Shown here in pieces: positions 1-17,664 of a DNA stretch of 32,519 bases (positions within the stretch are counted from its first letter, which is position 1; every line of letters starts with the position of its first letter). The notes beneath the pieces were generated by a model. The model did no database searches. It saw nothing but the letters and a program-made list of their open reading frames with translations, and was not told the origin of the DNA. The stretch spans positions 17,885 to 50,403 of the forward strand of contig CAYTXH010000003.1 of assembly GCA_964441115.1 (NCBI GenBank), read 5' to 3'. The position numbers and the translations under genes are program-made. This DNA comes from an uncultured Gammaproteobacteria bacterium. GTDB taxonomy: Bacteria > Patescibacteriota > Microgenomatia > Daviesbacterales > UBA10151.

Positions 1-1
1 C

Positions 2-514
2 TGTTATGTTATGATGCTGTATGAATATGTTTTTTATTGTTTATTGTTGTCACAAAATGTTTTCAATGTCGCCTCATCACGAACCATTGCTCTCTATAGA
101 GCTGCTTCAACCGTGTCGTTTGTCTGTACCATTTTTACGGCGGTTTTATTATTTAATGTTGGTTTTTCTTTAAATTGGAGTTTTTATTGGAATGGTTTAA
201 TTGCCCTAGGAATTACTTTGCCATTAGCGTTTCAATTACTCTGGACAGTTGAAATGGAAGGAATCACTGCTAAATTGATTGTTACTACCTTGTTAGTATC
301 AGTAATGTCGGGACAGTTAGCGATAGCATTATCATTTTGGCCAATTGCTCATCCAATATGGGCAATCAGTCAGGCAACAGCTTTGTATATTATGTTAGGA
401 CTAACAGTCGAATTTTGGAGAGAAAGATTATCAAATAGATTTGTTATCGAATATCTATCCGTTGGAGTAATCATTTTCTTATTAGCCTATTGGTTTACAG
501 CTTGGACAGGCTAG
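2..514 (+). CDS. Polytopic integral membrane protein of unknown function, probably 5'-truncated by the window edge
   Basis: The frame is open from base 2, with no stop before the first ATG at 11. The 167+ aa product is very hydrophobic, with about five TM-length segments. TAG stop at 512-514. No catalytic motif recognised. Confidence 0.5.
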   Translation, partial: CYVMMLYEYVFYCLLLSQNVFNVASSRTIALYRAASTVSFVCTIFTAVLLFNVGFSLNWSFYWNGLIALGITLPLAFQLLWTVEMEGITAKLIVTTLLVSVMSGQLAIALSFWPIAHPIWAISQATALYIMLGLTVEFWRERLSNRFVIEYLSVGVIIFLLAYWFTAWTG

Positions 515-1702
515 GGGAATAAACGGTCGGCAGTCAGGAGCTAGCAGCTTGCAGCGAGAAGTCATTATAATTACTGCTTACCAATAACGCAGTCTGCAGA
601 AAATATATATAAAATTTTACGCACGAATTAGCCTCAATTTTTTTCAAAAAAAAGTATATTAAATCAGAATAGAGGAGGAGTGACCCATAGTTAAATGATA
701 TAGTTTGATATAGTTGTGGATAACTCCAAATAAAAAACTATAAGATATATTATTGCATAATATTGAGGCTAGAATGTGTAAAGCAATAAACATAATAATA
801 TGCTTACAGAGAGTAGTGGTTATTCTTGATGCCTCTCTTTTGTGTCATATAGCTATATTTTTGTAAATAGGTTTTCACGCGTGAAAAAAGAAAATATAGC
901 TATATGAGGTAGGAGGATAATAGGCATGATCAGGCACAATAAAAGAGTAGCTAATTAAGTTCACTGAGCACAAATCCTATTTATAGATAGTCAGCGCACA
1001 CTCTTAGTGTAGTGCTAAGCTTAATATTTGATGTCGCACAATGATGGTTATGCGACGTCAGGAGTATGTACCAAGAGTGGGGCCCGTTAATCTATAGTGC
1101 CTGTACTGTGTACCAATTTATTGATTGATTTGCAGTAGCTGACGGTACCGTTATTTTGGCCTGCTACCTACTGAAATTTTTGTCTATTTTTTTATGGTTT
1201 TTATTAGTAAATCATCAGTTATGGCTATTTTAGATTGGACTGCTATAAAGCCCTAAACTAAGGATGACGTACTAGTCATCCCATGCTCTTAGAAGCCGTT
1301 TTAGGGGCATTTTTGGGCTTCGTGCCTGAGGCTAGAATTTTGGTCAATTAGAAGCCTATTTTAGCCTCAAAATTAATAAGTGTTTGGATATCTATGTATA
1401 AAAATATGATTAAAGATAATAATCAAGCCTAAACCGATGTATGAACTCCTCAAATTGAATATTTTATAGCTACAAAGCCTATTAATTAATAAGATCCATA
1501 AATGGTTGTTATTAAATTTATAGATAAATTAAATATTTGATTTTGGTCTACCAAATTTTGTTTTCTTAAAATATTAATTATTTTTGATTAGTTTACAAAT
1601 AATAATTGCCGTAAATATCAAAATTTCTAAACATATATTCGATGTCGCACAATATTAAACACTCTTGTCGAGGCTATTTAGCATAATTGAGGCAGATATA
1701 GG
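515..1702. other. ORF-poor AT-rich 1.2 kb spacer carrying iterated 9-mers, one perfect DnaA-box 9-mer and several palindromes; function unknown
   Basis: The supplied track has no ORF of 60 aa or more on either strand here, although the rest of the window is densely coding. By eye only peptides of 30 codons or fewer are open. Repeats are detailed in the findings. Confidence 0.5.
846..906. repeat. Nested perfect palindrome (16-bp outer arms enclosing a 16-nt inner palindrome)
   Basis: CATATAGCTATATTTT (846-861) is the exact reverse complement of AAAATATAGCTATATG (891-906). Inside lies TTTTCACGCGTGAAAA (872-887), which is itself a perfect palindrome. Confidence 0.85.
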
Positions 1703-1732
1703 TTGACAGTTGTGGCCATATGTTTTTATAGT
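1703..1732 (+). promoter_or_regulatory. Sigma-70-type promoter candidate TTGACA-N18-TATAGT, ending 7 nt before ATG 1740
   Basis: TTGACA at 1703-1708 and TATAGT at 1727-1732. No Shine-Dalgarno sequence lies between the -10 and the ATG, so a leaderless transcript is implied. This promoter is incompatible with the TTG 1710 start used in the ORF track. Confidence 0.45.
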
Positions 1733-1739
1733 AGAGTCA

Positions 1740-2207
1740 ATGCCACCCAAAGAATATCCTACTACTCCTCGCTCAGCCAATACCAAATTATTATTAGTGG
1801 CGTTAGGCTGCTCTATTCTTGGTTTAGCCATTGGTTTTGGCTTAGGACAAGCTTCAGTCTCAAAATCGACTACTAGCCCTACTAATATGAACCAGACTGA
1901 GCAAAAGTCTTATTTTGATAATCAATCAGGCACAATTCAAGGCCAAATCAGTCAAATTAATGGCAATAAAGTCTTAGTTACAAACCAACAAAATCAAGTC
2001 CAAGAGTTTGAATTAAGTAATCCGATTACCATTTATAAATATGCAGATTCTAAATCCCCAGCTGATGTTTATACTGATGCCTCCGAGATCGAGTTAAACA
2101 AACCCGCTTTAATCGATGTCCAAATGGATAATGGTCAATATAAAATTGTGGTAGTCACTATTTTAGCTCCCGCCACTCCAGTTGTGACTCCACAACCAAC
2201 ACCATGA
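1740..2207 (+). CDS. Small N-terminally membrane-anchored exported protein, unknown function (first gene of the surface locus)
   Basis: The ATG at 1740 is in frame with track ORF 1710-2207. One TM helix (KLLLVALGCSILGLAIGFGLG), then a Q/N/S-rich region and a Pro/Thr tail. Its TGA stop overlaps the next ATG (ATGA at 2204-2207). Confidence 0.6.
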   Translation: MPPKEYPTTPRSANTKLLLVALGCSILGLAIGFGLGQASVSKSTTSPTNMNQTEQKSYFDNQSGTIQGQISQINGNKVLVTNQQNQVQEFELSNPITIYKYADSKSPADVYTDASEIELNKPALIDVQMDNGQYKIVVVTILAPATPVVTPQPTP

Positions 2208-4165
2208 GAAGTTTGCTGCTTTTTCTAGCCTTAGTGGTTAGCAGTTTAATGATATTTATTACCCCTAGCGTTGCTATCGCTGCTGGTCCATATCCTGAAG
2301 GTTCGATCAATTTTGACGGTAAAACAGAACGAGCTCTCAGTATTAAAAAAGGTGAGAAAATGGCTTATACAGTCAAAATTACCAAGGGAACTAAAGTCTG
2401 TGAAGTCTTAACGCCAGTTTTAAATTCTTCCGGCGGCTTTGTTCAAGGTTTAAAAACAGAATTTACAGTTAATCGAGGTCAAGAATCATTTGAGGTTAAA
2501 AGTACGCTAGATACCAGCACATTAGCTCCAGGAAAATATTATTTAGGCATGTATGCCAGAACTGGAAATTGTCCGGGTGATGTCTATGGTAATCAAGATG
2601 ATGGTTTTGATTGTGACGGAACCCCTACTTGCCACAAATATTGTGGTCAAAATGGCCGAGAAGCCACTGTCCAAGCACCTGTAGCTTGTTTAGATCGATT
2701 ATTTTATTGCTCTACCAGAAAAGATATTCCATATCCTGCTGAATATGGCGGTAATAGTTGCGGACAACCAGCTGATGGTAATTTTAAAGCCGGATCACCA
2801 AATTACCGACAAGGTGAATGTGAGTTAGTTGCCTGTGATCGTTCAGGAAAAAACTTAGACAATTTAACTTTTACAGTTACTGAAGGAACCACTACACCTG
2901 CAACTTCATCTAAGCCATCGGCATCTGCTTCAGCTTCAGTAGCACCAGGAGCTTCTGGTTCCACAACCCCAAGTAGTGCACCTACAAGTACAGTAACTAT
3001 TTTAGATTCTTCAGCTGCCGGAACGGTCACTGTTCCAGCTGAGAAATCATCTCTTTCGACTGATGTTGATTTGACCAAAGGTATTATTACTCCAACCAAT
3101 AATCAACTCACCATCGGTGATCAAACACGCAATTTATCAAGTTATAATGGTGGTGATTTAGCTGCTAAACCAGCTGATTTATCAACTGGAGTAGCCGTTA
3201 TCGGGGGAACCAAATTTAATATTGGCAAGGCAGTTAATCTTCAATCTGCCTCAAATCGAGCTACAGAATTAACTAATACGAATGTTTCTGCAGTAATTCC
3301 TAATAACACTACAGTTTTAAGTTCTAGTAGCTGGGATGGCAAAATCGTTGCTCCAAAATTAGAAGCTGCTAGTGGTGGTACTGCCCCTTCTGGTTTTCAA
3401 GTTGGATCTAATGTTGTCGTTGTCGGTTCTCGGACTCAAACATTAATTTTTGATAAGCCAGTTACTCTAACTATTAAAAATTATGGTGGTGCGGTTGGTT
3501 ATAAGCCAGCTGGTGGTAGCAAATATGAAGCCATTACTGAAGTTTGTGGTGGTAGTTATGCTCAACCAAATCCACCAAAAACTTTCCCTGGAGAATGTTT
3601 TGTTACCAATGAAGCTAAAACTGAAACAAAGATTTTAACTTATCATTTAACTGAATTCGTAGCTTTAGTTGTGATTCCCCCAGTTTCTTATATCACCGTA
3701 AATCCATCAGTTTGTATGGATCCAAAAGATGAAAATAAAGTTGCGGCTCAAATCAAATGGGCGGCTAATCCAGGGTATCAGCATTTCGTTATCGCAAGGA
3801 CAAAATGTAGTAGTTATGATCGTTGTGATGGTCAACCTGAGTTAGTTGTAAATGGTAAAGTTGCCGCTTTTACACCATCTGCTAGAGATTTTCAGGTCAA
3901 ACCCGGCGAGTTTTGGAAATACCAGATTTGGGGCTTACATCAAGGCCAACCTGATCCCGACACCAATCCTCTCTCCAATTTAAATCCAAATTATTGGTCT
4001 AGACCAGTAGTTGTTAAAATTCAAAAATGCGGAAACAGCAATAGTTTACAAATTAAAGAATTGAAAGTTGATATTACTTCTCCACAACCGAGTAACACTC
4101 CTCCCCCCTCTTGTGCTCCAGGTACTGGAAACGCTTTTCATCCTTGCCAGCCAGCTACCAACTAA
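2204..4165 (+). CDS. Large secreted surface protein: cleavable signal peptide, Cys-rich module, S/T/A-rich linker, beta-rich C-terminal region
   Basis: N-terminus MRSLLLFLALVVSSLMIFITPSVAIAAGP has signal-peptide features (AIA-AG). There is a dense Cys cluster around residues 122-213 and a linker TTTPATSSKPSASASASVAPGASGSTTPSSAPTST. No enzyme motif and no dockerin seen. Confidence 0.7.
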   Translation: MRSLLLFLALVVSSLMIFITPSVAIAAGPYPEGSINFDGKTERALSIKKGEKMAYTVKITKGTKVCEVLTPVLNSSGGFVQGLKTEFTVNRGQESFEVKSTLDTSTLAPGKYYLGMYARTGNCPGDVYGNQDDGFDCDGTPTCHKYCGQNGREATVQAPVACLDRLFYCSTRKDIPYPAEYGGNSCGQPADGNFKAGSPNYRQGECELVACDRSGKNLDNLTFTVTEGTTTPATSSKPSASASASVAPGASGSTTPSSAPTSTVTILDSSAAGTVTVPAEKSSLSTDVDLTKGIITPTNNQLTIGDQTRNLSSYNGGDLAAKPADLSTGVAVIGGTKFNIGKAVNLQSASNRATELTNTNVSAVIPNNTTVLSSSSWDGKIVAPKLEAASGGTAPSGFQVGSNVVVVGSRTQTLIFDKPVTLTIKNYGGAVGYKPAGGSKYEAITEVCGGSYAQPNPPKTFPGECFVTNEAKTETKILTYHLTEFVALVVIPPVSYITVNPSVCMDPKDENKVAAQIKWAANPGYQHFVIARTKCSSYDRCDGQPELVVNGKVAAFTPSARDFQVKPGEFWKYQIWGLHQGQPDPDTNPLSNLNPNYWSRPVVVKIQKCGNSNSLQIKELKVDITSPQPSNTPPPSCAPGTGNAFHPCQPATN

Positions 4166-4191
4166 TACCTAGCTTTGGTATCATTGGTTTA

Positions 4192-4863
4192 ATGTTAGGA
4201 CGTAATATTTTCATAGTTATCTCAGTTGTATTGTTGTTAGCTTCGATCCCGTTGGGAGTCTATTTAGTTCGTCAACAAATGGCTTTGAGAACAAAAGCTG
4301 CAACTGCCAATGTTACTCGAATTGAAATTTTAGGAAACGAAATTAATGATCTCCGAACCACCTCCGCCAATATTAAATTACAATTAGTTTATGCCGCTAG
4401 ACCAGGTGAATCATTCCCAAATAGCTATCGAATTAGTAATTATTTAGGAAATATAAATCAGGCTCCGGAACAACCATTTACTCAAAATCCTATTTTAATT
4501 GATTGGCAATTAGAACCTGGGATTGGGCCTAAAACAATTTATGCTCAATTTAAAGTTAATGATGTTTGGGTTTCTCAAGTTCAACAATCAATTATTTTAG
4601 ATGATGGCTCTACTCCGCTCCCCAACGCCACTCCAGATATTGTTACAGTAGATTTGCCTACACCAACACCAAAATCGCTGATTTATAAGCCGGGTCAAAA
4701 GTTTGATCTAAATGATGACAAAGTAGTCGATAATACCGATATAGATATCTTTTTAGAGCGTTGGAGAACTGAAAAAGTAGAACCAAATGATCCCGCGGAT
4801 TTTAATAACGATGGCCGAATTAATAATAATGATTATGCAGAGATTTTGAAGCAGGTGAAGTAA
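4192..4863 (+). CDS. Membrane-anchored surface protein ending in a dockerin-like double EF-hand module
   Basis: I prefer ATG 4192 (MLGRNIFIV...), which lies after the upstream stop at 4165, to the overlapping TTG 4111. TM helix plus LRTKAA motif. The C-terminus has two 12-residue Ca-loop repeats, DLNDDKVVDNTD and DFNNDGRINNND, with D/N at loop positions 1, 3, 5, 9 and 12. Each repeat is followed by a short helix. Confidence 0.7.
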   Translation: MLGRNIFIVISVVLLLASIPLGVYLVRQQMALRTKAATANVTRIEILGNEINDLRTTSANIKLQLVYAARPGESFPNSYRISNYLGNINQAPEQPFTQNPILIDWQLEPGIGPKTIYAQFKVNDVWVSQVQQSIILDDGSTPLPNATPDIVTVDLPTPTPKSLIYKPGQKFDLNDDKVVDNTDIDIFLERWRTEKVEPNDPADFNNDGRINNNDYAEILKQVK

Positions 4864-4866
4864 AAT

Positions 4867-4906
4867 ATAAGTGATAAGTGATAAGTGATAAGTGATAAGT
4901 GATAAG
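4867..4906. repeat. Perfect tandem heptamer array (GTGATAA) x5 plus partial units
   Basis: GTGATAA occurs at 4871, 4878, 4885, 4892 and 4899. The array fills the entire 43-bp convergent gap between the stop at 4861-4863 and the minus-strand stop at 4907-4909. Confidence 0.95.
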
Positions 4907-5266
4907 CTAGGATAATGATTTATATAAACCCCAAAGTACTGTTCCTGTTTCATCTCTAATATTACTAATTATCTGGTAATCCTCTTTGGTTAAGTATTTT
5001 TGAGAGAACGCAAAATCACATAAGTACTGAGTTTCTGCAAGTGAGCCTAATGCTATACTTATAAACCTTCTAAACTCTGGTTTACTATTTCGAGCGTATC
5101 CTTCAACAATGTTTGTTGGAATTGAAAGAGAAGCCCGGCGGATTTGTGAAGTAATACCATATATTTCTGACTTGGGAAAATGATTTGTCTTTGAATAAAC
5201 AATTTGAGCTAGGCAATCTGCTTTTTGCCAAGCAACTAAATTTTTATATCCGATTGTCGTAACCAC
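4907..5266 (-). CDS. Four-helix-bundle protein (23S rRNA intervening-sequence protein family, Avd-like)
   Basis: 119 aa with the family pattern: YKNLVAWQKA near the N-terminus, RRASLSIPTNIVEGYAR, and ALGSLAETQYL. GTG start at 5264-5266. It is antisense to the surrounding plus-strand operon. Confidence 0.85.
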   Translation of the reverse strand: MVTTIGYKNLVAWQKADCLAQIVYSKTNHFPKSEIYGITSQIRRASLSIPTNIVEGYARNSKPEFRRFISIALGSLAETQYLCDFAFSQKYLTKEDYQIISNIRDETGTVLWGLYKSLS

Positions 5267-5291
5267 TTAGCTTCGAATTATAATCCTTAAA

Positions 5292-5340
5292 TTACCAGTT
5301 GTCTCCTATTACTTATCTCTTTTCTCCCCTCACTTGTCAC
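5292..5340. repeat. Degenerate heptamer array, inverted relative to the 4871-4905 array
   Basis: Plus-strand units are TTACCAG TTGTCTC CTATTAC TTATCTC TTTTCTC CCCTCAC TTGTCAC. Reverse-complemented they read GTGACAA GTGAGGG GAGAAAA GAGATAA GTAATAG GAGACAA CTGGTAA, each matching GTGATAA at 4-6 of 7 positions. Confidence 0.7.
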
Positions 5341-5362
5341 TTTCTAGAAAACTTGCCATAAT
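5334..5362 (+). promoter_or_regulatory. Promoter candidate TTGTCA-N17-CATAAT, ending 6 nt before ATG 5369
   Basis: TTGTCA at 5334-5339 is the last heptamer unit of the array. CATAAT is at 5357-5362. No Shine-Dalgarno sequence precedes the ATG. Confidence 0.4.
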
Positions 5363-5368
5363 CTAAAC

Positions 5369-5647
5369 ATGAATGACTTAAAAAATCAGCTCACAGATCG
5401 CAAAACATTAGTTAGTCTTTTAGTTTTACTTCTCCTCGCAATTGCTCTGCCCCTCGGCATTAAATTAGCTAAAGATCAACAAATTCTCCGTTCTCGGGCT
5501 GCAGCTGATCCAATACGTTTTACTGGTGAAACTGTTCAATCTCGAGGTTCGGCTTCCCCGGTCCCAGTTATCGTCCCTAACACTAATAATGAATATCAAG
5601 TTGATCTCGAATTTAATGCTCCAAGTGCGCCTCCTTCTCAACCATGA
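5369..5647 (+). CDS. Small membrane-anchored protein carrying the shared N-terminal anchor motif
   Basis: 92 aa: TM helix LVSLLVLLLLAIALPLGIKL, then QQILRSRAAADP, then a short Pro-rich tail. It resembles the N-terminal part of the 4192 protein. A weak hairpin (TAGCCT 5650-5655 / AGGCTA 5662-5667) follows. Confidence 0.55.
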   Translation: MNDLKNQLTDRKTLVSLLVLLLLAIALPLGIKLAKDQQILRSRAAADPIRFTGETVQSRGSASPVPVIVPNTNNEYQVDLEFNAPSAPPSQP

Positions 5648-5712
5648 TTTAGCCTCCATTTAGGCTAGTATTTGTTGATCTGTTGTGATACGTTAAATTT
5701 AGCCATATTTTC

Positions 5713-8700
5713 ATGACTAAAATTGCTAGTGTTTTTATTCTTTTAATATTATTTGTCTCAATTGGTTTTGGGATATATTTATCACAACAAAATCAGTCTT
5801 TAAAAAGTCGAGCGAATGCTACACCTTCAATTCAAGCTTATTGCCAAGGAGTTCATGATAATCTCAGAATTCGAATCAATTGGTCAGGTCTCCCAGCCTT
5901 ACAAGCAGATCAGTATTATGATATTCGAACGTATGATAACTCTGGTGATGCAGATGCTGGACAAGATTCTCGAAACGGCCGAAATACGACACTAAATTCT
6001 GAAGGCAGTACATTTGTTACAGTTTCTAATCAGCCCAATAATAGCCAATTGGTGGCGGCTCATCGTCGTCCCTATCAAGTTTTAATTACTAGATTAGGTA
6101 GTGGAGGGAGCAATGTACCAATCGCTGATTCTGGAGTTTTTAGCTGTAAAGCTGACCCCTCAGACGTTAGAATTGATGAGCTTAGTGGTGGGGGTGATAG
6201 TTGCGGAGTGATTAGCGGACAAGCACGGATTAAATTAAATGCCTTTACCGATTTTTCTCTTTTCGCCAATAATCAAATTCACTTATGGTTAATGAAAGGT
6301 GGATGTGGCCTAGGCAATAATTCTAGCTGTAACCCACAGGGATATAATTCTAATTTATCCGAAGACACGATGGTTAAAATCATTAGTACTGATAATTTTG
6401 GTAGGTTTAGTTATGATCTGAAAAATGATCCGACAGTCGCTCATTTATTTGCTAATAATGCCAATCGAACGATTGCTCTTTACGGGGTTGGTGTGGCAGA
6501 TGCTGAGTTCTGGAATAATTTTTACTACACCCAGATAAATGTTAGTGGTTGTAGTGCTACAACTACTCCAATAGCAGATGAACCACCGACAATTAGCACT
6601 TGTGCCGGTGCTACAATTAGTTGTGCCCAAGGTTATCGATCAGCGCCCCATCCAGATCCTTCTCCTCCAAATCGCTGTTTAACTTGTGTACCAATTGAAA
6701 CACCAAATATTGATGTGACACAAAATAATGGTCAAGTTACAGTGACTTGGACTGGTCAAGCCAATGGTGTTTGGATTACAGATCAAGCAGTCGCCAATAT
6801 TGGTAATAATCCATTATGGTGTGGTTCATGTCGGAATATCTTAACTACCAGACAAACTGACGCCGCAGACGCTCCAAATCTTGCTGGTAATTCTTTTAGT
6901 TTTGGTTCTGATTTAGCTGGGTTTAGAGTAGAAGGAACTAGTCGGACAGACATCGGTAAATACAATTTAGTTAATGGTAAAAAATATTGGATTATGGTCA
7001 GCAATGGTAGTTTACTAAGTTCTAATGTGGAGTTTACTTATCAAGCACCAGTCACGACTCCTCCGGTAGGTGAACCAAACCCAAATCCATCCCCGGATCC
7101 TAACCCTCCAACAAATCCTCCTCCACCAGCACCAGTAAATACTAAAGCTACCGGAAGTGCTCAGGTACAGGGATGTCTACTTAGCGGTAATATAACAGAC
7201 AGCAATTATGTAAATAATGAAACCGGCAAATTGATTGCTGATTTATGGGTGTCGGGTAGTTATTACGTTAAAGATAGTTCTAACAAATGTGTTGCATCCA
7301 ATAGCTTGTATTTAGGCTATGCCGAAGCTAAATCAATCGCTAATAGTTCTGGCAATTACAGCTTTGATTTTTCTAATACAGCAACTTATGCAGCGGTTAC
7401 ATCTAGTAGTGGACAAAATGGTGTAACTTACAAAAACTCTACCTGTACTGAAGTTGCCTATCCTAATCAAGAAATAATTAAAAAAAGTCCTAAAGATGTG
7501 AGTGTCTATTTTATCGATCTCGGCGCTGATGGTAAAAGAGTCCCTGACTCTGCTTCTCCAGCACATAATTCTCAAGTTGTTCAAATCAGCTGTGATCCAG
7601 ATAAAGATGTTAAACCACTATTTGTTCGATTCAGCGAAAATGAGGATGACTTAAAACAATTTAGTCAAAATAAATGTAATTTAGATATCAATCAGGTAGT
7701 AACTAATAAAGTTGCTCCAGAAGCATACATTGCTAACGGTTGTCCTCCACTTAATGACATCAGTACCGGAATTGCGAAAATTAGTGAATATAAATTTAAA
7801 AACCAATCAGCAGGTCTTAAAACAATTTATGCCGAGTTTATTTATAGCAATGGCAAGACTGTTCAAAAGAAATCTAGTATTGAGGCAGTAGCTCCAGATC
7901 CGAAAATTACTAATTTAACTTGCGGTAAAGATTTGACTGGCCGTGGCCTAAGTCTAACAATCAAAGGTAATAATTTCTTAGCTAAGAATACTCAAAGCCA
8001 AATTAAAATCAATAATGCTACCGCCAATATCACTAACTGGAGTAATCCAAATGGCGGAGTTCAAACAGTTACCGCCACATATGAAGATTCAAAATTGACT
8101 CCAGAACAAGGTCAGCAATATAACATTACTTTAATTCGTGCCGATGGCAGGACTGATACTGCTAGCTGTTTAGTAGGAGTCAGTCAATTATCTTTAGGTG
8201 CCAAAGTTTGGTGCCGACAGCCAAGCAAGTACGATCAAGACAATGTTGAAGTTGTCATTGCTGAAGCCATTACTGGCGGGAAAAGAATCGAAACCAAAGT
8301 TAAGATTGATAAAGATGGCAATTTGCAGGGTATCAATAATCAGCTCAAAGCTGGTGCCTGTTATCGAATGAGTATTAAAGCTCCAAAAAGTGTCCGTCGG
8401 GTAGTTGAATTCCAAGCCCAAGAAGGTTCAACTATTATTCCAGATTTTCGATTACCAATTGGTGATATTTATCCAGATGGTGGTGGTGACGGGAAGATAA
8501 ATGCTAGTGATCGATCAGAAATCATTCGCCAATGGAGTGCGATTCGCTCTAGTAGTAATTCTGGATCTCTAGTTAAAACCGGAGATTTAAATATCGATTC
8601 CGTCATTAATTCCTTTGATTTCTCTTGTATGATGTATGATTATAACGAGGGTGATGCTCCAAAAGTTGAAGCTGGTCCAATCGATGGTTCTAAAAATCCA

Positions 8701-8784
8701 GCTCTTAAACAAAGTTGTGATGAATCATTTAATCAGAATAATTACAGTACTAATAATGCCACTGGGAGTGCCACGGTAAATTAA
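5713..8784 (+). CDS. Giant (1023 aa) membrane-anchored surface protein, beta-rich and multi-domain, with a Pro-rich linker and a C-terminal dockerin-like module
   Basis: N-terminal TM plus QQNQSLKSRANA motif. Linker PPVGEPNPNPSPDPNPPTNPPPPAP. Dockerin-like loops DGGGDGKINASD and DLNIDSVINSFD lie near the C-terminus. No catalytic motif recognised. Confidence 0.75.
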   Translation: MTKIASVFILLILFVSIGFGIYLSQQNQSLKSRANATPSIQAYCQGVHDNLRIRINWSGLPALQADQYYDIRTYDNSGDADAGQDSRNGRNTTLNSEGSTFVTVSNQPNNSQLVAAHRRPYQVLITRLGSGGSNVPIADSGVFSCKADPSDVRIDELSGGGDSCGVISGQARIKLNAFTDFSLFANNQIHLWLMKGGCGLGNNSSCNPQGYNSNLSEDTMVKIISTDNFGRFSYDLKNDPTVAHLFANNANRTIALYGVGVADAEFWNNFYYTQINVSGCSATTTPIADEPPTISTCAGATISCAQGYRSAPHPDPSPPNRCLTCVPIETPNIDVTQNNGQVTVTWTGQANGVWITDQAVANIGNNPLWCGSCRNILTTRQTDAADAPNLAGNSFSFGSDLAGFRVEGTSRTDIGKYNLVNGKKYWIMVSNGSLLSSNVEFTYQAPVTTPPVGEPNPNPSPDPNPPTNPPPPAPVNTKATGSAQVQGCLLSGNITDSNYVNNETGKLIADLWVSGSYYVKDSSNKCVASNSLYLGYAEAKSIANSSGNYSFDFSNTATYAAVTSSSGQNGVTYKNSTCTEVAYPNQEIIKKSPKDVSVYFIDLGADGKRVPDSASPAHNSQVVQISCDPDKDVKPLFVRFSENEDDLKQFSQNKCNLDINQVVTNKVAPEAYIANGCPPLNDISTGIAKISEYKFKNQSAGLKTIYAEFIYSNGKTVQKKSSIEAVAPDPKITNLTCGKDLTGRGLSLTIKGNNFLAKNTQSQIKINNATANITNWSNPNGGVQTVTATYEDSKLTPEQGQQYNITLIRADGRTDTASCLVGVSQLSLGAKVWCRQPSKYDQDNVEVVIAEAITGGKRIETKVKIDKDGNLQGINNQLKAGACYRMSIKAPKSVRRVVEFQAQEGSTIIPDFRLPIGDIYPDGGGDGKINASDRSEIIRQWSAIRSSSNSGSLVKTGDLNIDSVINSFDFSCMMYDYNEGDAPKVEAGPIDGSKNPALKQSCDESFNQNNYSTNNATGSATVN

Positions 8785-8785
8785 T

Positions 8786-9439
8786 ATGGATAACATCTCT
8801 GCCCCAATCATCGTTCAATCAAATCCCAATCAGACTTCGTCTCATTCTAGTGGTCAATTAGTCCAATGGTTAATCAAGATTGTGTTATTAGGTTTAGTCT
8901 TATTTGTTGGCTTTCAAGCTTGGCAAGCTTATCAATTATGGAGAACTCCTGAATCAGTTCCCGCAGCCGCAGCACCAGTTTTGACTGAAACAAATGGCGG
9001 TCGGATTCGCTTAATTAGTACTAAAGAAAATTATAAAGTTGGTGAAGAAGTTGTTATCTCAGCAGTGATTGATACTAATGGCCGCCGAGTTAATGGCATT
9101 GATTTAATGGGGTCATATGATCCGGGTGTTTTAACTGCTACTAATAGTGGTCGTCTTCGGACATTTCGCCCCGGAAATGTTTTTACCGAATACCCAATCA
9201 CTTTAATCGATGCCACTAATGGGGATATTCAGATCTCAGCTATTGCCACATTATCTCAAGCTGCTTATAGTGGAAATGGTCAATTAGCGACACTTACTTT
9301 TCTTGCTAGTCAACCTGGAATTACTACCGTCAGGCTCAATTTTAAAGCTGGAGAGACCACCGACAGTAATATGATTGATGCTGATGAGCTCGCTGATATC
9401 CTGACAAGTGTCCAAGATGTTACTATTAAAATAGAATGA
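8786..9439 (+). CDS. N-terminally membrane-anchored cohesin-like domain protein
   Basis: One TM helix (WLIKIVLLGLVLFVGF), then a single beta-sandwich-type module with cohesin-like hallmarks: YKVGEEVVISAVIDTNGRRVNGIDLMGSYDPGVLTA and YSGNGQLATLTFLASQPGITTVRLNF. It starts 1 nt after the upstream stop, and its stop overlaps the next ATG. Confidence 0.6.
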   Translation: MDNISAPIIVQSNPNQTSSHSSGQLVQWLIKIVLLGLVLFVGFQAWQAYQLWRTPESVPAAAAPVLTETNGGRIRLISTKENYKVGEEVVISAVIDTNGRRVNGIDLMGSYDPGVLTATNSGRLRTFRPGNVFTEYPITLIDATNGDIQISAIATLSQAAYSGNGQLATLTFLASQPGITTVRLNFKAGETTDSNMIDADELADILTSVQDVTIKIE

Positions 9440-10263
9440 TCAAAAATTGGTTAACTGCTGCCATTGTTATATTTGCTGGTTTAATGTTGCCTAGCTCCGC
9501 TATGGCTGCAACTCTGTCGCTATCCCCAACTGGTGGTAGTTATAATCGAGGCTGTACCTTTCAAGTTGCTGTTGTTTTAGATGCCACCAATGAACAGACT
9601 GATGGCACCGATGCTATCTTAATTTATGACACTACCAAATTAACCTTATCTGCCCAAGCTGTTCAAACTAATACTAGTATTTATCCTGATTATTCAAATT
9701 CATCAGACCCTTCAACCGGCAAAATTTCGATCTCTGGTATCGCTTCAGTTAGCCAAGCTTACTCAGGAAAAGGCAATATGGCCACTGTTAGTTTTCAAGT
9801 AAAATCTGATGCTGCTCCAGGTCCAATGGCTATTAGGTTTGATTTTGATAGCTCTAATAAAGATAAAACTACTGATTCAAATGTTGTCGAACGCGGCACA
9901 GTTAAAGAATTATTAACACAAGTTACAGATGGTAATTACACTATTGGTAGTGGCACAGGTTGTACTAGCAGTGGTTCAGGAACTTCTACAAGCACAGGAG
10001 GTACTGGTGGCACTGGAACTTCAACCTCAACCGCTAGTGGTAGTGGAACCACGGCAAAAGGTAACGCCCCAATTCCATTTCCAGTAGGAGCTGCTAGTAG
10101 CTCTGCTCAATTCCCAACATCAACAGTTATTCCGAATCAAACTGGAGTTTCTAAAGGCGGTCAAATTCTTAGCCCAGCTGGCACTTCAACACCATTAATC
10201 ATTATGGGAGCTGTCGCTGGAATATTAGTTGTTTTGGGCATCCTAGGGATTGCTTTACTCTAA
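9436..10263 (+). CDS. Secreted cohesin-like domain protein with a G/S/T-rich stalk and a C-terminal TM anchor
   Basis: Signal peptide ending SSAMAATLS. Cohesin-like hallmarks CTFQVAVVLDATNEQTDGTDAILIYDTTKLTL and YSGKGNMATVSFQVKSDAAPGPMAIRFDF. Stalk GSGTGCTSSGSGTSTSTGGTGGTGTSTSTASGSGT. Terminal hydrophobic helix PLIIMGAVAGILVVLGILGIALL. Confidence 0.6.
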   Translation: MIKNWLTAAIVIFAGLMLPSSAMAATLSLSPTGGSYNRGCTFQVAVVLDATNEQTDGTDAILIYDTTKLTLSAQAVQTNTSIYPDYSNSSDPSTGKISISGIASVSQAYSGKGNMATVSFQVKSDAAPGPMAIRFDFDSSNKDKTTDSNVVERGTVKELLTQVTDGNYTIGSGTGCTSSGSGTSTSTGGTGGTGTSTSTASGSGTTAKGNAPIPFPVGAASSSAQFPTSTVIPNQTGVSKGGQILSPAGTSTPLIIMGAVAGILVVLGILGIALL

Positions 10264-10266
10264 TCT

Positions 10267-11214
10267 ATGTCAAATGATAATCAGCTAGTCATCCTGGCGA
10301 AACTAACTACAGATTTTTTGGAATATTTAGAAATTGAGAGAAATGCCTCTCCATTAACAATTCGCAATTATCACCACTATTTGCAGCGTTTTGTTGATTT
10401 TGCCGGCACTGCTACTCCTCAACAAATAGATCTTAAATTAATTCGTCAGTACCGACTTCATCTAGCTCATTATCAAGATCCAATCACCCGTAAGCCTTTA
10501 AAAAGAGTCACCCAGAATTTCTTTATGATCGCTTTAAGAGCATTTCTGAAATATCTTGCCCGCCAAGATATTGAAACTCTTTCGCCTGAAAAAATCGAAT
10601 TAGGAGAAACTGATCCCTCTCCACTAAAAGTTTTAGATGATCAAAGTTTATCTAGATTATTATCTGCTCCAAACCCGGTGGGCAAAGACGGTTTGCGTGA
10701 TAAAGCTATTTTAGAGTTATTGTTTTCGACAGGTTTAAGAGTCTCGGAACTAGCTTCGCTAAACCGAGATCATATTAATTTTGAGCGTCGAGAATTTGGT
10801 GTAGTTGGTAAAGGCGGTAAAGAACGAGTTGTCTTTTTATCGGATAGTGCTATTGAGTGGCTGGAACAATATTTAGATTCAAGAAAAGACGATTTTCGGC
10901 CGCTTTTTATTCGTTATCAAGGACAAATTGATCCGACTGATCACGGCGATAATATGCGATTAACTACTCGATCAATTGAACGAATAGTCGAAAAATATGT
11001 CAAACAAGCAGGTTTAGCAGTTAAAGCTACACCACATACTCTTCGACATAACTTCGCAACTGATTTATTAGTAAATGGAGCCGATATCCGCTCAGTACAG
11101 GAAATGTTGGGCCATTCCAATATCGCTACAACTCAAGTTTATACCCATGTGACCAATAAACACTTAAAGGATGTTCATAAAGCGTTTCATTCTAAAAATC
11201 ATAGTGAGGAATAA
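10267..11214 (+). CDS. Tyrosine site-specific recombinase, XerC/XerD family
   Basis: N-terminal SAM-like core-binding region. Catalytic signature is present: STGLRVSEL (Arg), GKGGKERVV (Lys), HTLRHNFAT (His-x-x-Arg), LGHSNIATTQVYTHV (His and the Tyr nucleophile). Confidence 0.9.
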   Translation: MSNDNQLVILAKLTTDFLEYLEIERNASPLTIRNYHHYLQRFVDFAGTATPQQIDLKLIRQYRLHLAHYQDPITRKPLKRVTQNFFMIALRAFLKYLARQDIETLSPEKIELGETDPSPLKVLDDQSLSRLLSAPNPVGKDGLRDKAILELLFSTGLRVSELASLNRDHINFERREFGVVGKGGKERVVFLSDSAIEWLEQYLDSRKDDFRPLFIRYQGQIDPTDHGDNMRLTTRSIERIVEKYVKQAGLAVKATPHTLRHNFATDLLVNGADIRSVQEMLGHSNIATTQVYTHVTNKHLKDVHKAFHSKNHSEE

Positions 11215-11242
11215 TTATTTAGACCCCCAATAGACTTTTGTA

Positions 11243-11359
11243 GCGTCATTGCGAGCGGAGCGCGGCAATCTATATATTAATAGCTCGTAGGGTATGGGAT
11301 ATGGTAGGTGGAAAGGCAAATACTAGAAAGCAAAGATTGCTTCGTGCCTCGCAATGACG
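11243..11359. repeat. GC-rich palindromic (MITE/REP-like) element, copy 1
   Basis: Left arm GCGTCATTGCGAG...GCAATCT (11243-11271) pairs with right arm AGATTGC...CTCGCAATGACG (11334-11359). The 29 nt at 11331-11359 are identical to 23715-23743. The element lies in the convergent gap between xer and nfo. It is followed by the CCTACACGCTA direct repeat (11376 and 11420) and two mini-hairpins (11392-11402, 11408-11418). Confidence 0.85.
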
Positions 11360-11434
11360 AAATATGCTGCTAGCTCCTACACGCTAAACCTCGCCATAGG
11401 CGAAGCTCGCCTTTGGCGGCCTACACGCTAATTA

Positions 11435-12274
11435 CTAGAGATACGATTTTAACCGATCGACGTTTAGCTTATCCGGCCCGGATTTATTATCGCCTGGAAC
11501 TTCTAATAACCACGGGACTTTATTAAAGGGCTCTGTCTTCATTAATAATTTAAAAGCCTCTTCAGTTAAAAATCCTTCACCAATATTTTCGTGACGGTCT
11601 CGATGAGAATGAAATTCGGTTTTTGAATCATTTGCATGGATCGCTGCTAAATTATCAAAGCCAATTTGTTCCTCTAACTCTGCTACTAAATCTCTGATAC
11701 CTAAAGGTGTTCTGGTGTCATAACCAGCAGCAAAAGCGTGTTGTGTATCAAAACATATTTTAGCGCGAGGATCTGCTACCCCTGCTAAAATTTGACCTAA
11801 TTCTGAAAATGTTCCACCAATTGCCCCTCCTCCACCCGCTGAATTTTCTAATAATAATAAACTGTCAGATGGAGAACTGGCTAAAACTTCTTTAATTGAT
11901 TTAATAACTTGATCAACAATGGTTTGAAAGCCACTACCCTTATGTGAACCTAAGTGAAAAATAGTCCCGACTACCCCTAGTTGACTAGCCATATTCTGAG
12001 CATAGATCAGCCAGTCAATCGATTTTTGTAAATGGGCTGGATCCGCGCTGCCTAAATTAATTAAATAAGTTCCGTGAATAAAATTAGGTCCGATTCCTGT
12101 TTCTACTGCTCGTTCTTTAAATCGGGCAATGACCTCAGGGCTATGTTTGGATTGATCCCATCGTTGGGGTGGTGAAACAAAAAATTGAAAACAATCAGCG
12201 CCGATTTTCTCTGCCCGTTCAAAACATAAATCTAATGAAATAGCTGCTGAAACATGGCCGCCAATTTTGGGCAT
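11435..12274 (-). CDS. nfo: Deoxyribonuclease IV (endonuclease IV, AP endonuclease family 2)
   Basis: 279 aa with xylose-isomerase-like TIM barrel motifs: IGGHVS, HGTYLINL, LLENSAG, CFDTQHAFAAGYD, IHANDSK, DRHENIGEG. Confidence 0.9.
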   Translation of the reverse strand: MPKIGGHVSAAISLDLCFERAEKIGADCFQFFVSPPQRWDQSKHSPEVIARFKERAVETGIGPNFIHGTYLINLGSADPAHLQKSIDWLIYAQNMASQLGVVGTIFHLGSHKGSGFQTIVDQVIKSIKEVLASSPSDSLLLLENSAGGGGAIGGTFSELGQILAGVADPRAKICFDTQHAFAAGYDTRTPLGIRDLVAELEEQIGFDNLAAIHANDSKTEFHSHRDRHENIGEGFLTEEAFKLLMKTEPFNKVPWLLEVPGDNKSGPDKLNVDRLKSYL

Positions 12275-15447: not shown

Positions 15448-17664
15448 TTATTTAATCCTGCGGAATTTTTTCTTTAATGCCGGTTGTAGCTCTTCTACTC
15501 CAGGTAAAGATTGAAGTAATCGAATATTTCTAGGAGATTTTAATTTATTTAAAGCTTGGACTTCTATTTGTCGTACCCTTTCTCTAGATATATTTAATTT
15601 TTCGGATACTTCTAGCAAAGTTTTACTATTCCCATCATCTAATCCGAAACGATAAATAATCACATCTTTCTCCCTATCGCTAAACTCTGAACTATTTAAA
15701 ATCGACATGATTACTGATCTCTGTTGATATTGTGAAGCTTCCTCAACTGCCTCGTCACTTACATTATCAGTCGTTGAACCGACTAAATCACCGATTGTAG
15801 AATCTCCATCTTCTCCAATTGGCTGATCTAAAGACATTGGTTTAAAACGATTAGCATTAACTTTCATTAATAACTCGAAATCTTCGCGAGTATATTCGCC
15901 TGTTTTAATAAGTTCTTGTGCCATTTGCTCTTGGGATAATTCATGCATATTATTACCAATAGTTTTAAAAAGGTATCGACGCATCGAAAAGATCTTTTGA
16001 TGTATATGTACGGGGAATCTAATTGTATCTGCTGTATCCGCTATTGCCCGCTTAATAGCTTGTCTAATCCACCAAGTTGCATATGTCGAAAATTTATTTC
16101 CTCTCTCAGGATCAAATTTTAATATAGCTCGAGCAAGCCCCATATTTCCCTCTTGAATTAAATCAGCAAATTCAACTCCTCTCCAGCGAAATCTTTTGGC
16201 TTCAGCAATAACTAATCTCAAATTAGCTTTAACCAAATCTTCGATGGCTGAAGTTCCATCTTCAAAAAGATGTTTAGTTAATTTTAATTCTTCCGCGGAG
16301 AGAAAATGATAAAAAGACTCGTCGAGTTTCAATTTATATGGGTCATCCATTTGTTTCATAAATTCCAATCCCATTTCAAAGGGCATTTTTTCTGAATGTT
16401 TTCTTAATTTCTTTCGGTGTTCCACTGCTAATTGAACTCGTCCACCAAGTACTTTTTCCTGTTCAGCGTCAATCAGAGGAAAATTCCTTATATCTGCAAA
16501 ATATGATTCGACGACATCTACGCTGTAAGTTAATTCCGCTTCATTATTTTTTTCCTTTTGCTTGGGTTTAGCTTTCGACCTTCTTATATCCATTAACTCT
16601 AAAGTTTGTTTTAAATGCTCTGATGTAAAAATCTGTTCATCATCAGGATTCCAGTTTGAAGTTTGATCAATTATGACGTGATCTTCCTCTTCTTCTATCT
16701 CCACTAACTCTTTTTGCCGTCGACTCTTCTTAGTTTTCTCTACAAATATTTTAGGTACATCATCGTCTATAATCTCCTCATCACCATCTGAATTTATATT
16801 TTCTTCTAGTTCAATACTTTCGATTTCTGTTTCATCATGAATAACCGGAATTTCCTCTATAGGTTGATCTTGTTTATCCTCAACATCTTTTCGATTTCTA
16901 GGTGTGTATTTTCTTTTAACCCGCGATGATTGTAATGTTTCTTCTTGAGTGCTTTGACCGTTAACCGCTGGTTCAACAATCATTGGGAGAAGATCTGCTT
17001 TTTTAGCAATATCACTAAAATCGACATCGATTTTTTCAGTCGGATTGATAATAGTATCTGCTGCTACTCCACTAATGTAATCGTTAACATTTGGCAAATC
17101 TAACTGATAACCATTAATCACCATCTCCCTGAAATCACGCTCAATCTGCTGCATATTTAGGATTGATTGATTAGAATTTTGATCAAACGTAATCCCTAAT
17201 TGGGTCATTAATGTGTCAATCATTGGCTGTAAATATTTGGTTCGGTAAATTCGCTCAAGAGCTGCAGTTCTTTGTCGATCTCTCCAGTCACCAAAGCCTT
17301 GAGACAATATCAATTGATTGATTCCTCGAAAACTCTCAGCGGAAGGCATTATTCTCGGATCTTTAAAACTATTCTCTGCTAACCATTTACTTGCACTTTG
17401 ATACTTATCCGCCATCTCATCGATATCCGATTTATCTCTAAATCCAGAGAAGGTTTTAGCAATTAATTTCTGATGGCGAGCTAGGCGGCGGTAAATAGTT
17501 CCCTCAGGTCGTACTCCCCAAGCCTGAAGTCTAGCGGTATGTTCAATAACAGTTTGAGCTACTGGATAAAGTAAACCATCTACAGATAATTGTCGAAGCG
17601 GCGTGTCAGATTGAGGGGCGAATTGTTCATGATGCTGATCTTTCTCAATATGATACAAAGTCAT
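15448..17664 (-). CDS. rpoD: Primary-type sigma-70 factor with an N-terminal extension of about 440 aa
   Basis: The C-terminal third has canonical regions 2-4: DLIQEGNMGLARAILKFDPERGNKFSTYATWWIRQAIKRAIAD, TIRFPVHI, and TLLEVSEKLNISRERVRQIEVQALNKLK. The N-terminal portion matches nothing I recognise. Confidence 0.8.
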   Translation of the reverse strand: MTLYHIEKDQHHEQFAPQSDTPLRQLSVDGLLYPVAQTVIEHTARLQAWGVRPEGTIYRRLARHQKLIAKTFSGFRDKSDIDEMADKYQSASKWLAENSFKDPRIMPSAESFRGINQLILSQGFGDWRDRQRTAALERIYRTKYLQPMIDTLMTQLGITFDQNSNQSILNMQQIERDFREMVINGYQLDLPNVNDYISGVAADTIINPTEKIDVDFSDIAKKADLLPMIVEPAVNGQSTQEETLQSSRVKRKYTPRNRKDVEDKQDQPIEEIPVIHDETEIESIELEENINSDGDEEIIDDDVPKIFVEKTKKSRRQKELVEIEEEEDHVIIDQTSNWNPDDEQIFTSEHLKQTLELMDIRRSKAKPKQKEKNNEAELTYSVDVVESYFADIRNFPLIDAEQEKVLGGRVQLAVEHRKKLRKHSEKMPFEMGLEFMKQMDDPYKLKLDESFYHFLSAEELKLTKHLFEDGTSAIEDLVKANLRLVIAEAKRFRWRGVEFADLIQEGNMGLARAILKFDPERGNKFSTYATWWIRQAIKRAIADTADTIRFPVHIHQKIFSMRRYLFKTIGNNMHELSQEQMAQELIKTGEYTREDFELLMKVNANRFKPMSLDQPIGEDGDSTIGDLVGSTTDNVSDEAVEEASQYQQRSVIMSILNSSEFSDREKDVIIYRFGLDDGNSKTLLEVSEKLNISRERVRQIEVQALNKLKSPRNIRLLQSLPGVEELQPALKKKFRRIK

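Follow-up and report, generated by a model that had tools for sequence, protein, structure and literature searches.

How does a bacterium from the candidate phyla radiation (CPR) fix large proteins to the outside of its cell? To our knowledge, the building of the cell surface and the recognition of hosts in CPR/Patescibacteria are largely unknown, and we know of no cultured member of the Microgenomates. The question is raised by a locus at positions 1740–10263 of a 32,519-nucleotide (nt) stretch of contig CAYTXH010000003.1 (the whole stretch is henceforth called the window), in which a preliminary description made from the sequence had recognised two proteins with dockerins and two with cohesins and had proposed a membrane-anchored display complex. 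The genes of this region are named A to F, plus D', and all of them lie on the + strand. At the centre of the analysis stand gene D (5713–8784; 1023 amino acids (aa); leader, variable region, and conserved C-terminal block with a dockerin), gene E (8786–9439; 217 aa; N-terminal signal-anchor transmembrane (TM) segment and one cohesin), and gene F (9436–10263; 275 aa; signal peptide, cohesin, stalk, and a C-terminal LSPAG motif with TM segment). In the explanation favoured here, which is held with moderate confidence, they belong to a non-cellulosomal cohesin–dockerin system by which a Daviesbacteria-like bacterium (Microgenomates, CPR) anchors proteins on its cell surface.

Conservation of the cassette

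Related loci were collected by scanning one genome per GTDB species with a profile of the F family. This yielded 63 loci, nearly all in metagenome-assembled genomes (MAGs) of Daviesbacteria or Microgenomates, and one in a complete chromosome. Open reading frames (ORFs) of all loci were classified with hidden Markov models (HMMs) built from the window and a few relatives, and gene order was counted in the 51 loci in which 3.5 kb or more was available upstream of F; taxon labels are database names. The same-strand order D-E-F was found in 49/51 loci, so that the synteny proposed earlier as a check was observed for these three genes. E was always located immediately 3' of a D gene; most loci also kept the ATGA overlap between E and F. 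The genes D-E-F form a cassette that is conserved and tightly packed. Conservation covers (D')-D-E-F and not the whole run from A to F as had been assumed; A, B, and C are not general. Because the four matches to two partner families fall in adjacent genes and D-E-F recurs to this extent, the pattern is judged from the sequences not to be due to chance.

Variants of the cassette comprised D-E-F-D-E (L002), D-E-D-E-F (L051, L068), and D-D-E-F (L047), as well as a D protein whose dockerin is followed by a fused F-like cohesin (L009) and F alone, without D-E, in two loci. F was present once per locus, and the numbers of E followed those of D. A recombinase gene was located directly 3' of F in the related loci inspected, and a DUF5656 gene preceded the island in 44 loci.

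Domain architecture of D

Both dockerins of the preliminary description were recovered with Pfam, Dockerin_1 matching D at 26.5 bits (E 7.3e-6) and C at 28.0 bits (E 2.6e-6) against a gathering threshold of 22.9. The four loop sequences quoted for them are present exactly in C and D. Aspartate or asparagine at positions 1, 3, 5, 9, and 12 had been claimed for all four loops and was found in three; it is not given in DGGGDGKINASD, the first loop of D, which is non-canonical with Gly at position 3, and the second loop of D, DLNIDSVINSFD, is canonical. Over 51 species, the consensus of D-family loop 1 was GDI.P..(G)DG.IN..D, without conservation at positions 1 and 3, and that of loop 2 was the canonical gDfN.D.rVNS.D.

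The dockerin is part of a conserved C-terminal block (residues 689–989, arranged Ig–TIG–X-module–dockerin), which follows a species-specific variable region (residues ~35–688). The block is opened by an Ig-like 'KTIYAEF' domain and an IPT/TIG domain (7777–8184, + strand) and continued by an X-module-like beta-sandwich (residues ~825–908) and the dockerin (residues 914–981), which together occupy 8185–8655 on the + strand. The AlphaFold2 (AF2) model of D residues 681–997 (predicted local distance difference test (pLDDT) 81.3) contains three beta domains followed by two helices at 931–944 and 967–974, with the Ig-like and TIG strands at fragment positions 21–59 and 65–140, respectively. The Pfam match of D to TIG is weak; the D-family profile matched the IPT/TIG domain of cyclodextrin glycosyltransferase (CGTase) at 9e-7, and the KTIYA(Q/E)F motif is common to D and C.

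When the D model was compared with solved structures in Foldseek, the type II X-dockerin chains 2b59_B, 5m0y_B, and 5k39_B were matched at a target-normalised template modelling score (TMt) of 0.57–0.61, plus 4fl4_L. The alignments to the former three chains span both X-module and dockerin (163–172 columns; 19–21% identity over the X-dockerin (XDoc)). At the profile level, the D family matched solved dockerins at 1.5e-6 and the CipA XDoc (2b59_B) at 5e-4. In the model, the X-module directly abuts the dockerin as one X-dockerin unit, which is proposed with moderate confidence, the arrangement of domains in a single chain being no proof of their packing. Four Cys residues of the block are invariant, one of them at the start of the X-module and another in the last dockerin helix, and may form a staple.

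When 1.8 billion representative proteins were searched exhaustively with a profile of the D C-terminal block, 449 protein clusters were found at E ≤ 1e-30. Given this number, the low counts from word-indexed searches (two matches for the D C-terminus, one for C) reflect a prefilter limit and not rarity. D-family proteins are 296–1728 aa long, and the C-terminal block is mostly terminal. Their N-terminal regions fail to align across species (mean column identity 13%); the N-terminal part of the window's D had a match in L008 only, among 66 loci, and no match of the variable part was found in PDB or Pfam. In a Pfam scan of 59 D-family proteins, a dockerin was found in 46 and an extra cohesin in 7, the cohesin-bearing variants (e.g., P0121, P0212, P0262, and L009:1916–5434) resembling adaptor scaffoldins. 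Other domains were sporadic, namely Laminin_G_3, VWA, fn3, filamin, InlB B-repeat, and CarboxypepD_reg.

In the D gene of a sister MAG (L070:2700–3390), a segment of ~345 nt is duplicated in tandem, whereas the window has one copy of it (6699–7044). As the segment is doubled in one genome and single in the other, repeats within the variable part of D appear to vary in copy number.

Identification of the cohesins

For the two downstream proteins described as cohesins, the Pfam check had a divided outcome. F matched Cohesin at 28.0 bits (E 2.9e-6), over the gathering threshold of 24.1; E remained under this threshold (21.4 bits, E 3e-4) and was identified via its family. The E-family profile was aligned to the F-family profile by hhalign at a probability of 99.8% (E = 2e-29), 39/44 E-family members matched Pfam Cohesin at E ≤ 0.01 (best 3e-14), and the E-family profile matched solved type II cohesins, with 3l8q as the best match at 3e-10. 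Because of these matches, E is regarded as a cohesin and a paralogue of F despite its sub-threshold score. The top 13 PDB matches of the E-family profile are named by their depositors as scaffoldin-adaptor, anchoring-protein, or SdbA cohesins, all of which we take to be of type II. Type II cohesins are characterised by beta-flaps and by an additional helix that lies between strands 6 and 7.

In E, an N-terminal TM segment (residues 22–48, from hydropathy) precedes the cohesin (residues ~73–213). F consists of an N-terminal signal peptide (1–24), a type-I-like cohesin (25–170), a stalk rich in Gly, Ser, and Thr (171–244), and a C-terminal TM segment (248–275, from hydropathy). The AF2 model of F, computed with 25 homologues, has a beta core with pLDDT 80–94, a disordered stretch at residues 179–247, and a helix at 252–274. 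The membrane tethering that had been proposed for both proteins is consistent with the hydropathy of E and F and with the terminal helix in the model of F.

The fold of F was likewise identified from its model: the top 50 PDB matches in Foldseek were all cohesins, the best being 6kgc_A (TMt 0.80, root mean square deviation (rmsd) 2.5), and the best fold matches were type I cohesins, e.g., CohA2 of C. acetobutylicum (TMt 0.80–0.83, rmsd 2.1–2.5 Å). F is thus predicted to have the cohesin fold, i.e., the nine-stranded beta-sandwich (jelly roll) expected in the preliminary description. More than 518 homologues of F were found, of which those with a named source belong to Daviesbacteria, Microgenomates, or Patescibacteria; some are already named "cohesin domain-containing protein" by NCBI. 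The residues C40 and C176 of F are invariant.

The most conserved part of the F family is its last 31 residues (245–275, nt 10168–10260), with the consensus K-T-L-P-P-A-G-[ST]-E-Q-L-T-F-T-L-A-I-V-G-S-V-L-T-V-L-G-I-L-G-L-A-L-L. The motif L[PS]xxG occurs at a fixed distance in 76/118 F homologues and reads LSPAG in the window; the segment further has an invariant Thr, near-invariant Gly residues in the TM part at −15, −8, and −5, and the ending LGLALL. F was considered as a classical sortase substrate, for which the hydrophobic segment and L[PS]xxG are present; this was rejected, as a positive tail is lacking in 118/118 homologues (no Lys or Arg in the last six residues) and none of the NCBIfam sorting-signal models matches the F C-terminus. 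The C-terminal end of F looks like a sorting signal, though not like the classical tripartite sortase signal.

Proposed assignment of cohesins to dockerins

From the 2:2 ratio of modules in the window, two specific cohesin–dockerin pairs had been suggested. This could not be generalised, the usual locus having one X-dockerin protein and two cohesin proteins, with X-less dockerins in 5 loci. The pairing of D with E is favoured because of the coupling of their copy numbers (extra D genes are accompanied by an extra E in L002, L051, and L068 and F stays single), the persistence of F alone, the type II matches of D and E beside the type I matches of F, and the correlation of pairwise distances. 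In 51 triads, dockerin distances correlated with E distances at r = 0.47 (0/2000 permutations as high) and with F distances at r = 0.28 (8/2000 permutations as high); the bootstrap interval of the E-minus-F difference was 0.05–0.34, and the correlation of the dockerin with the neighbouring Xer recombinase was r = −0.04. D and E therefore probably represent a type II X-dockerin/cohesin pair, with E as the proposed membrane socket for the X-dockerin of D, and F and C look type-I-like. X-less canonical dockerins, C among them, would be the natural clients of F.

Several observations weigh against this assignment. Distances of E correlate with those of the non-dockerin part of D at r = 0.55, which is at least as strong as with the dockerin, so that the co-variation of dockerin and E may reflect co-inheritance and not an interface. 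Segment 2 of the dockerin (VNS.DWaCMR) is highly conserved and would also suit the conserved F as partner. The non-canonical Ca loop 1 of the D family makes Ca2+ binding and the binding mode uncertain, and the fold of E is deduced from its paralogy with F, E itself scoring below the threshold in the window.

Some of these observations would be accommodated if the D dockerin bound F, or E and F in turn, with E as a receiver or assembly factor near the membrane from which D would pass to the stalk-borne F. The dockerin is asymmetric, its segment 1 being variable and non-canonical and its segment 2 canonical and highly conserved like F, which is the most conserved member of the cassette (mean p-distance 0.38 vs 0.61 for E). 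In addition, the modelled stalk of F would be long enough to clear a wall, and the dockerin–F correlation is still significant. Such a hand-over is nevertheless thought unlikely, as it is at odds with the coupled counts of D and E, with an F that is single and present without D-E, with the fit of the E profile to type II cohesins and of D to type II X-dockerins, and with the proximity of the F model to type I cohesins.

Alternatively, the modules could be homologous to cohesins and dockerins without binding each other, the dockerin serving as a Ca2+-stabilised terminal module or as a binder of another ligand and the cohesins as beta-sandwich spacers or glycan binders. The degenerate Ca loop 1 would fit this, and many non-cellulosomal cohesin and dockerin modules are said to have no known partner (so reportedly Peer et al. 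2009). Against it stand the strict adjacency and co-orientation of the dockerin gene with two cohesin genes in 49/51 loci, the coupled copy numbers, the co-variation of dockerin and E, and the conservation of the X-module–dockerin dyad, and the absence of mutual binding is consequently rated as very improbable.

Enzymes in the window and in related loci

For the window, the preliminary description had noted no carbohydrate-active enzymes and no other enzyme signature in the cargo, and in accordance with this Pfam and NCBIfam gave neither a carbohydrate-active enzyme nor another enzyme domain for A, B, C, D', or D. The statement does not extend to the system as a whole, since L058 and L019 hold glycoside hydrolase (GH)-like proteins in the slot of gene C. 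In L058 (4445–6527, directly upstream of D), Glyco_hydro_cc (29.2 bits) and the carbohydrate-binding module (CBM) family CBM_4_9 (28.6 bits) were matched above threshold, and Dockerin_1 (43 bits) follows in the next ORF after a masked run. The protein of L019 (6034–7509) has a Dockerin_1 match of 39 bits, sub-threshold GH5 matches, and no CBM. The dockerins of both are canonical. Within 10 kb of the cassette, X-less dockerin proteins were present in 5 of ~60 loci.

These loci bear on the question of whether the locus encodes a minimal cellulosome-like, glycan-degrading complex, in which E and F would be anchoring scaffoldins for dockerin-bearing GHs (in relatives, or elsewhere in the genome) and D a substrate-binding or adaptor scaffoldin. 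Besides the Glyco_hydro_cc/CBM_4_9 protein continued by Dockerin_1 in L058 and the dockerin protein with sub-threshold GH5 in L019, this explanation can draw on the cohesin modules of 7/59 D proteins, which are reminiscent of adaptor scaffoldins, and on a groundwater metaproteome in which type I/II cohesin and dockerin proteins of Shapirobacterales (Microgenomates) were detected and taken as a cellulosome (bioRxiv 10.1101/2021.08.21.457207). Conversely, the island proteins of the window showed neither GH nor CBM nor any other enzyme domain, no hydrolase domain was found by Pfam in any of the 59 D-family proteins, X-less dockerins near the cassette are restricted to the few loci given above, and one cohesin per cohesin protein does not provide a scaffold for multiple enzymes. 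A cellulosome in the strict sense (multi-cohesin scaffoldin, dockerin enzymes, and CBM) was rejected for the window, E and F having one cohesin each and A, B, C, D', and D having neither GH nor CBM; the minimal cellulosome-like complex is considered quite unlikely. Because of the GH-like dockerin proteins of L058 and L019 and the 7/59 D proteins with one cohesin, a rudimentary cellulosome-like tier is indicated for some species, in which the system can, judging by these domain matches, carry enzymes; it does not do so in this window. Matches to cohesin or dockerin families in CPR genomes should not be equated with evidence of cellulose degradation.

Accessory proteins and the shared leader

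The second dockerin protein of the window is encoded by gene C (4192–4863; 223 aa), which comprises a leader, an Ig-like KTIYAQF domain, a linker, and an X-less dockerin (residues 171–221, nt 4702–4854) with two canonical Ca loops. The one close homologue of C found was a protein of the sister MAG with 92% identity; L008 has a C-like ORF without dockerin, and X-less dockerin proteins are located in the C slot also in L019, L029, L033, and L058. C is regarded as accessory and as a putative ligand of F.

Gene D' (5369–5647; 92 aa) encodes the family leader (TM segment and QQILRSRA) and a PIRFTG module. The leader is shared by C (4192–4310), D' (5369–5500), and D (5713–5820) and is composed of a hydrophobic segment and (L)VRQQQ(I/L)x(S/T)xA, often followed by PIxFxGxNV. 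In related loci it was found on 57 ORFs, 56 of which lie on the cassette strand, and the leader of D' had matches on 71 ORFs; neither Pfam nor NCBIfam has a model that matches it. The leader may serve specifically for export or processing, with S-x-A as the putative signal-peptidase site. A separate leader-bearing, D'-like ORF occurs immediately 5' of D in 22/50 D genes, and the leader with PIxF module is fused to D in a further 11/50. D' is conserved in the sister MAG and, going by these arrangements, appears as a recurrent fourth component of the cassette that is fused to D in some species.

Proposed mechanism

According to the proposed mechanism, D, D', and C would be exported by the Sec pathway via the leader (hydrophobic segment and QQQxLxSxA), and signal peptidase would probably cut after S-x-A. 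E would be inserted with its N-terminus inside and its C-terminus outside, which would place its type-II-like cohesin close to the membrane. F would lose its signal peptide and present its type-I-like cohesin at the tip of a stalk of ~75 residues, which would be fixed in the membrane or possibly handed to the wall by a sortase-like enzyme. The X-module–dockerin of D would then plug with Ca2+ into the cohesin of E, so that the variable, Cys-rich, and beta-rich N-terminal part of D would project outward; the CipA X-dockerin attaches the cellulosome of C. thermocellum to SdbA-type cohesins on the same principle. F would receive X-less type-I-like dockerins, i.e., C in the window and, in some relatives, GH-like enzymes or proteins docking onto D-borne cohesins. 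The outcome would be a membrane-anchored display complex.

As no enzymes were found in the window and the cargo is exchanged between species, the displayed proteins are likely to function in adhesion to a host or substrate or as a surface coat. To the counterpoints given above it has to be added that adhesion is deduced only from the absence of enzymes and from variability, that an uncleaved leader would tether D at both ends, and that the missing basic tail makes the mode of anchoring of F uncertain.

Comparison with known systems

The closest parallel in domain arrangement considered here is the type II pair of the CipA XDoc and SdbA/OlpB of C. thermocellum (2b59, 5k39, 5m0y, 4fl4). As in D, a beta-sandwich directly precedes a C-terminal dockerin, the cohesin partner is fixed to the surface like E, whose profile finds its best solved matches among type II cohesins, and a large extracellular protein is fixed to the cell by its C-terminus, which is a prediction for D. 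Type II X-dockerin anchoring has a high mechanical stability in cellulosomes, X-dockerin complexes of types II and III typically bearing forces of hundreds of pN. The systems differ in that surface fixation is by S-layer homology (SLH) repeats in C. thermocellum and by a single N-terminal TM helix in E, in that the window's D has no cohesin array and hence no enzyme clients, in the non-canonical Ca loop 1 of D, and in the organism, which here is a CPR bacterium without evident cellulolytic role.

A non-enzymatic X-dockerin adhesin on a single-cohesin, sortase-anchored protein is reportedly represented by CttA–ScaE of R. flavefaciens (Rincon et al. 2005, 2007; Salama-Alber et al. 2013; PDB 4iu2/4iu3, 2zf9). 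Like the arrangement predicted here, a non-catalytic binding protein is attached via an X-dockerin to a monovalent cohesin protein, and ScaE resembles F in having a signal peptide, a cohesin, a linker, and a C-terminal LPXTG-type signal; ScaE cohesin structures were among the fold matches of F (E ~2e-7). In contrast to ScaE, the motif of F is LPxxG (LSPAG) without a basic tail, and its fold is nearest to type I and not type III. A second, TM-anchored cohesin protein (E) is present here in addition, and the cargo is unrelated to CttA.

Non-cellulosomal cohesins are represented among the F fold matches by Archaeoglobus fulgidus 2xdh and the Clostridium perfringens toxin-complex 2jh2, both from organisms without cellulosomes. 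Modules of this kind are reportedly surveyed by Peer et al. 2009 (FEMS Microbiol Lett). The modules in these cases stand alone or form enzyme–enzyme pairs, as opposed to a dedicated, syntenic, multi-species cassette with exchangeable cargo.

Among CPR bacteria, in addition to the Shapirobacterales metaproteome, a dockerin-domain envelope protein (SEML1_0315) is essential in the cultivated Saccharibacterium Southlakia epibionticum (PMC10633639). Both reports (10.1101/2021.08.21.457207, PMC10633639) agree with the present data in the occurrence of cohesin and dockerin domains in CPR bacteria, and show in addition that such domains are expressed and, in one instance, essential; they differ in that the domains were mentioned as passing annotations and taken as cellulosome or glycan targeting, with no cassette, X-dockerin/type II assignment, anchors, or cargo analysis. 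The view that such an anchor-plus-cargo cassette had not been characterised before was supported, as no description of it was found in the full-text searchable literature. The new points are the conservation of the cassette, the assignment to the X-dockerin/type II class, the presence of anchors of two kinds, and a cargo that is exchangeable and non-enzymatic.

Organization of the island

The G+C content of the window is 34–40%, and its housekeeping genes include those for DUF5656, Mur ligases, and gyrA/gyrB. Where homologues of its proteins have a named source, this is Candidatus Daviesbacteria, Microgenomates, or Patescibacteria, and the window is therefore assigned to a CPR bacterium of that group. 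The island starts with gene A (1710/1740–2207; ~155 aa; N-terminal TM segment) and gene B (2204–4165; 653 aa; signal peptide, Cys- and Ser/Thr-rich, without dockerin). Neither showed a match in Pfam, NCBIfam, or PDB, nor a dockerin or cohesin. A homologue of A was found in no fetched locus, the sister contig L070 beginning inside B and thus being unable to show A; B has no homologue in the 63 related loci, and its C-terminal end is conserved only in the ~85%-identical sister MAG L070. A and B were rejected as components of the cohesin–dockerin system on these grounds (no dockerin or cohesin, no family match, no homologues in the 63 related loci). They are interpreted as lineage-specific cargo of the island that is not demonstrably part of the system.

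Gene calls agreed with the two ATGA overlaps (2204, 9436) and the gap of 1 nt (8785) on which the operon-like packing had been based. The packing itself stands; the region does not look like a single operon, as an antisense gene and D' separate C from D. The former (4907–5266, − strand) belongs to the 23S_rRNA_IVP family (Pfam, 116 bits; four-helix bundle, bAvd-like, with a bAvd score below threshold). Since a minus-strand gene and the leader-bearing D' lie between C and D, the arrangement suggests two transcription units, A-B-C and D'-D-E-F(-Xer), and not one operon. The two top sigma-70-like sites (1703–1732 and 5334–5362) end 6–7 nt before the ATGs at 1740 (A; 7 nt) and 5369 (D'); as the total of such sites is not above that of shuffled sequence, they are only a hint. 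Given the distance of these sites from the ATGs, the mRNAs of A and D' may be leaderless, and A probably starts at ATG 1740 and not at the upstream TTG 1710.

The 4907–5266 gene is absent from the sister MAG contig L070 and is for this reason interpreted as a recent indel. A diversity-generating retroelement around it was rejected: there was no reverse transcriptase among the window ORFs, no long direct repeats in 1–12000, and no template/variable pair, and the gene is missing from the sister MAG.

Directly 3' of F, starting 3 nt past it, lies an xerC/D-type tyrosine recombinase gene (10267–11214, + strand; Phage_integrase 156 bits and a SAM-like N domain in Pfam). It is a conserved neighbour whose part in the cassette is putative at most. 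Further downstream, two sigma-70 family genes are located close together on the minus strand (15448–17664 and 19069–20040), one of which encodes 738 aa with a ~380-residue N-terminal extension without family match; a 455-aa ORF between them (17694–19061) has no Pfam match.

Non-coding region upstream of the island

Upstream of the island, a conserved, unstranded region free of ORFs extends from 515 to 1709. A gap at the same position (550–1250 bp, after the DUF5656 gene) was present in ~40 Daviesbacteria loci with collinear conserved blocks, which in the window correspond to ~696–755, 1027–1062, and 1235–1327. The first block contains a perfect DnaA box (TGTGGATAA, 715–723, + strand); the same 9-mer was found in 21/39 homologous gaps, always in one orientation and with one box per gap. 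At 1033–1056 lies a 9-6-9 palindrome, GTCGCACAA-TGATGG-TTATGCGAC, which resembles bacterial dif and was present in 26 loci. The third block is a ~93-nt element (1235–1327) found in 39/42 gaps (nhmmer E-values as low as 1e-23); AAGCCGTTTT is invariant in it, it contains the inverted repeat TTTAGGG..CCCTAAAC, and it is probably regulatory DNA.

With loci aligned on the palindrome, mean GC skew was +0.136 on the left (4 kb; positive in 20/21), then ~0, and then −0.04 on the right. As GC skew drops across the palindrome in the manner expected at a terminus, the replication terminus seems to be located at the dif-like site, with the cassette between dif and the xer gene. The window has a single full dif-like palindrome, and an exact 11-nt copy of its left arm was found at 1643–1653. 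Excision of the island as a Xer cassette was rejected, as no second dif-like site flanks it other than this left-arm repeat. The region 515–1709 was also rejected as oriC, having one DnaA box and a GC-skew change with the polarity of a terminus and not of an origin. It was rejected as a structured RNA as well, given the lack of Rfam matches (by gathering threshold or E-value), of tRNA/tmRNA, and of an RNAalifold consensus on either strand; covariation of a hairpin in this region was not above shuffles (78/500 as high).

A more far-reaching extension, which is offered as speculation and is itself improbable, would combine these observations into a modular "adhesosome", i.e., a plug-in surface display specific to Daviesbacteria and related Microgenomates. 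Segment 1 of the dockerin would fit the fast-evolving E and segment 2 the conserved F, interchangeable species-specific adhesins would be taken up at the membrane and passed outward, D proteins with cohesins and X-less clients, including GH-like enzymes, would add tiers, and the position between dif and xer at the terminus would promote turnover and shifts in host range.

Significance

The cassette provides a hypothesis that can be tested in vitro, namely that conserved cohesin anchors hold an exchangeable X-dockerin protein whose outward part differs per species. If confirmed, the type II X-dockerin anchoring principle would be extended to non-enzymatic surface display in a distant bacterial lineage, and new orthogonal cohesin–dockerin pairs would become available for protein engineering. 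For the Daviesbacteria themselves, the displayed proteins would then be candidate determinants of host specificity.

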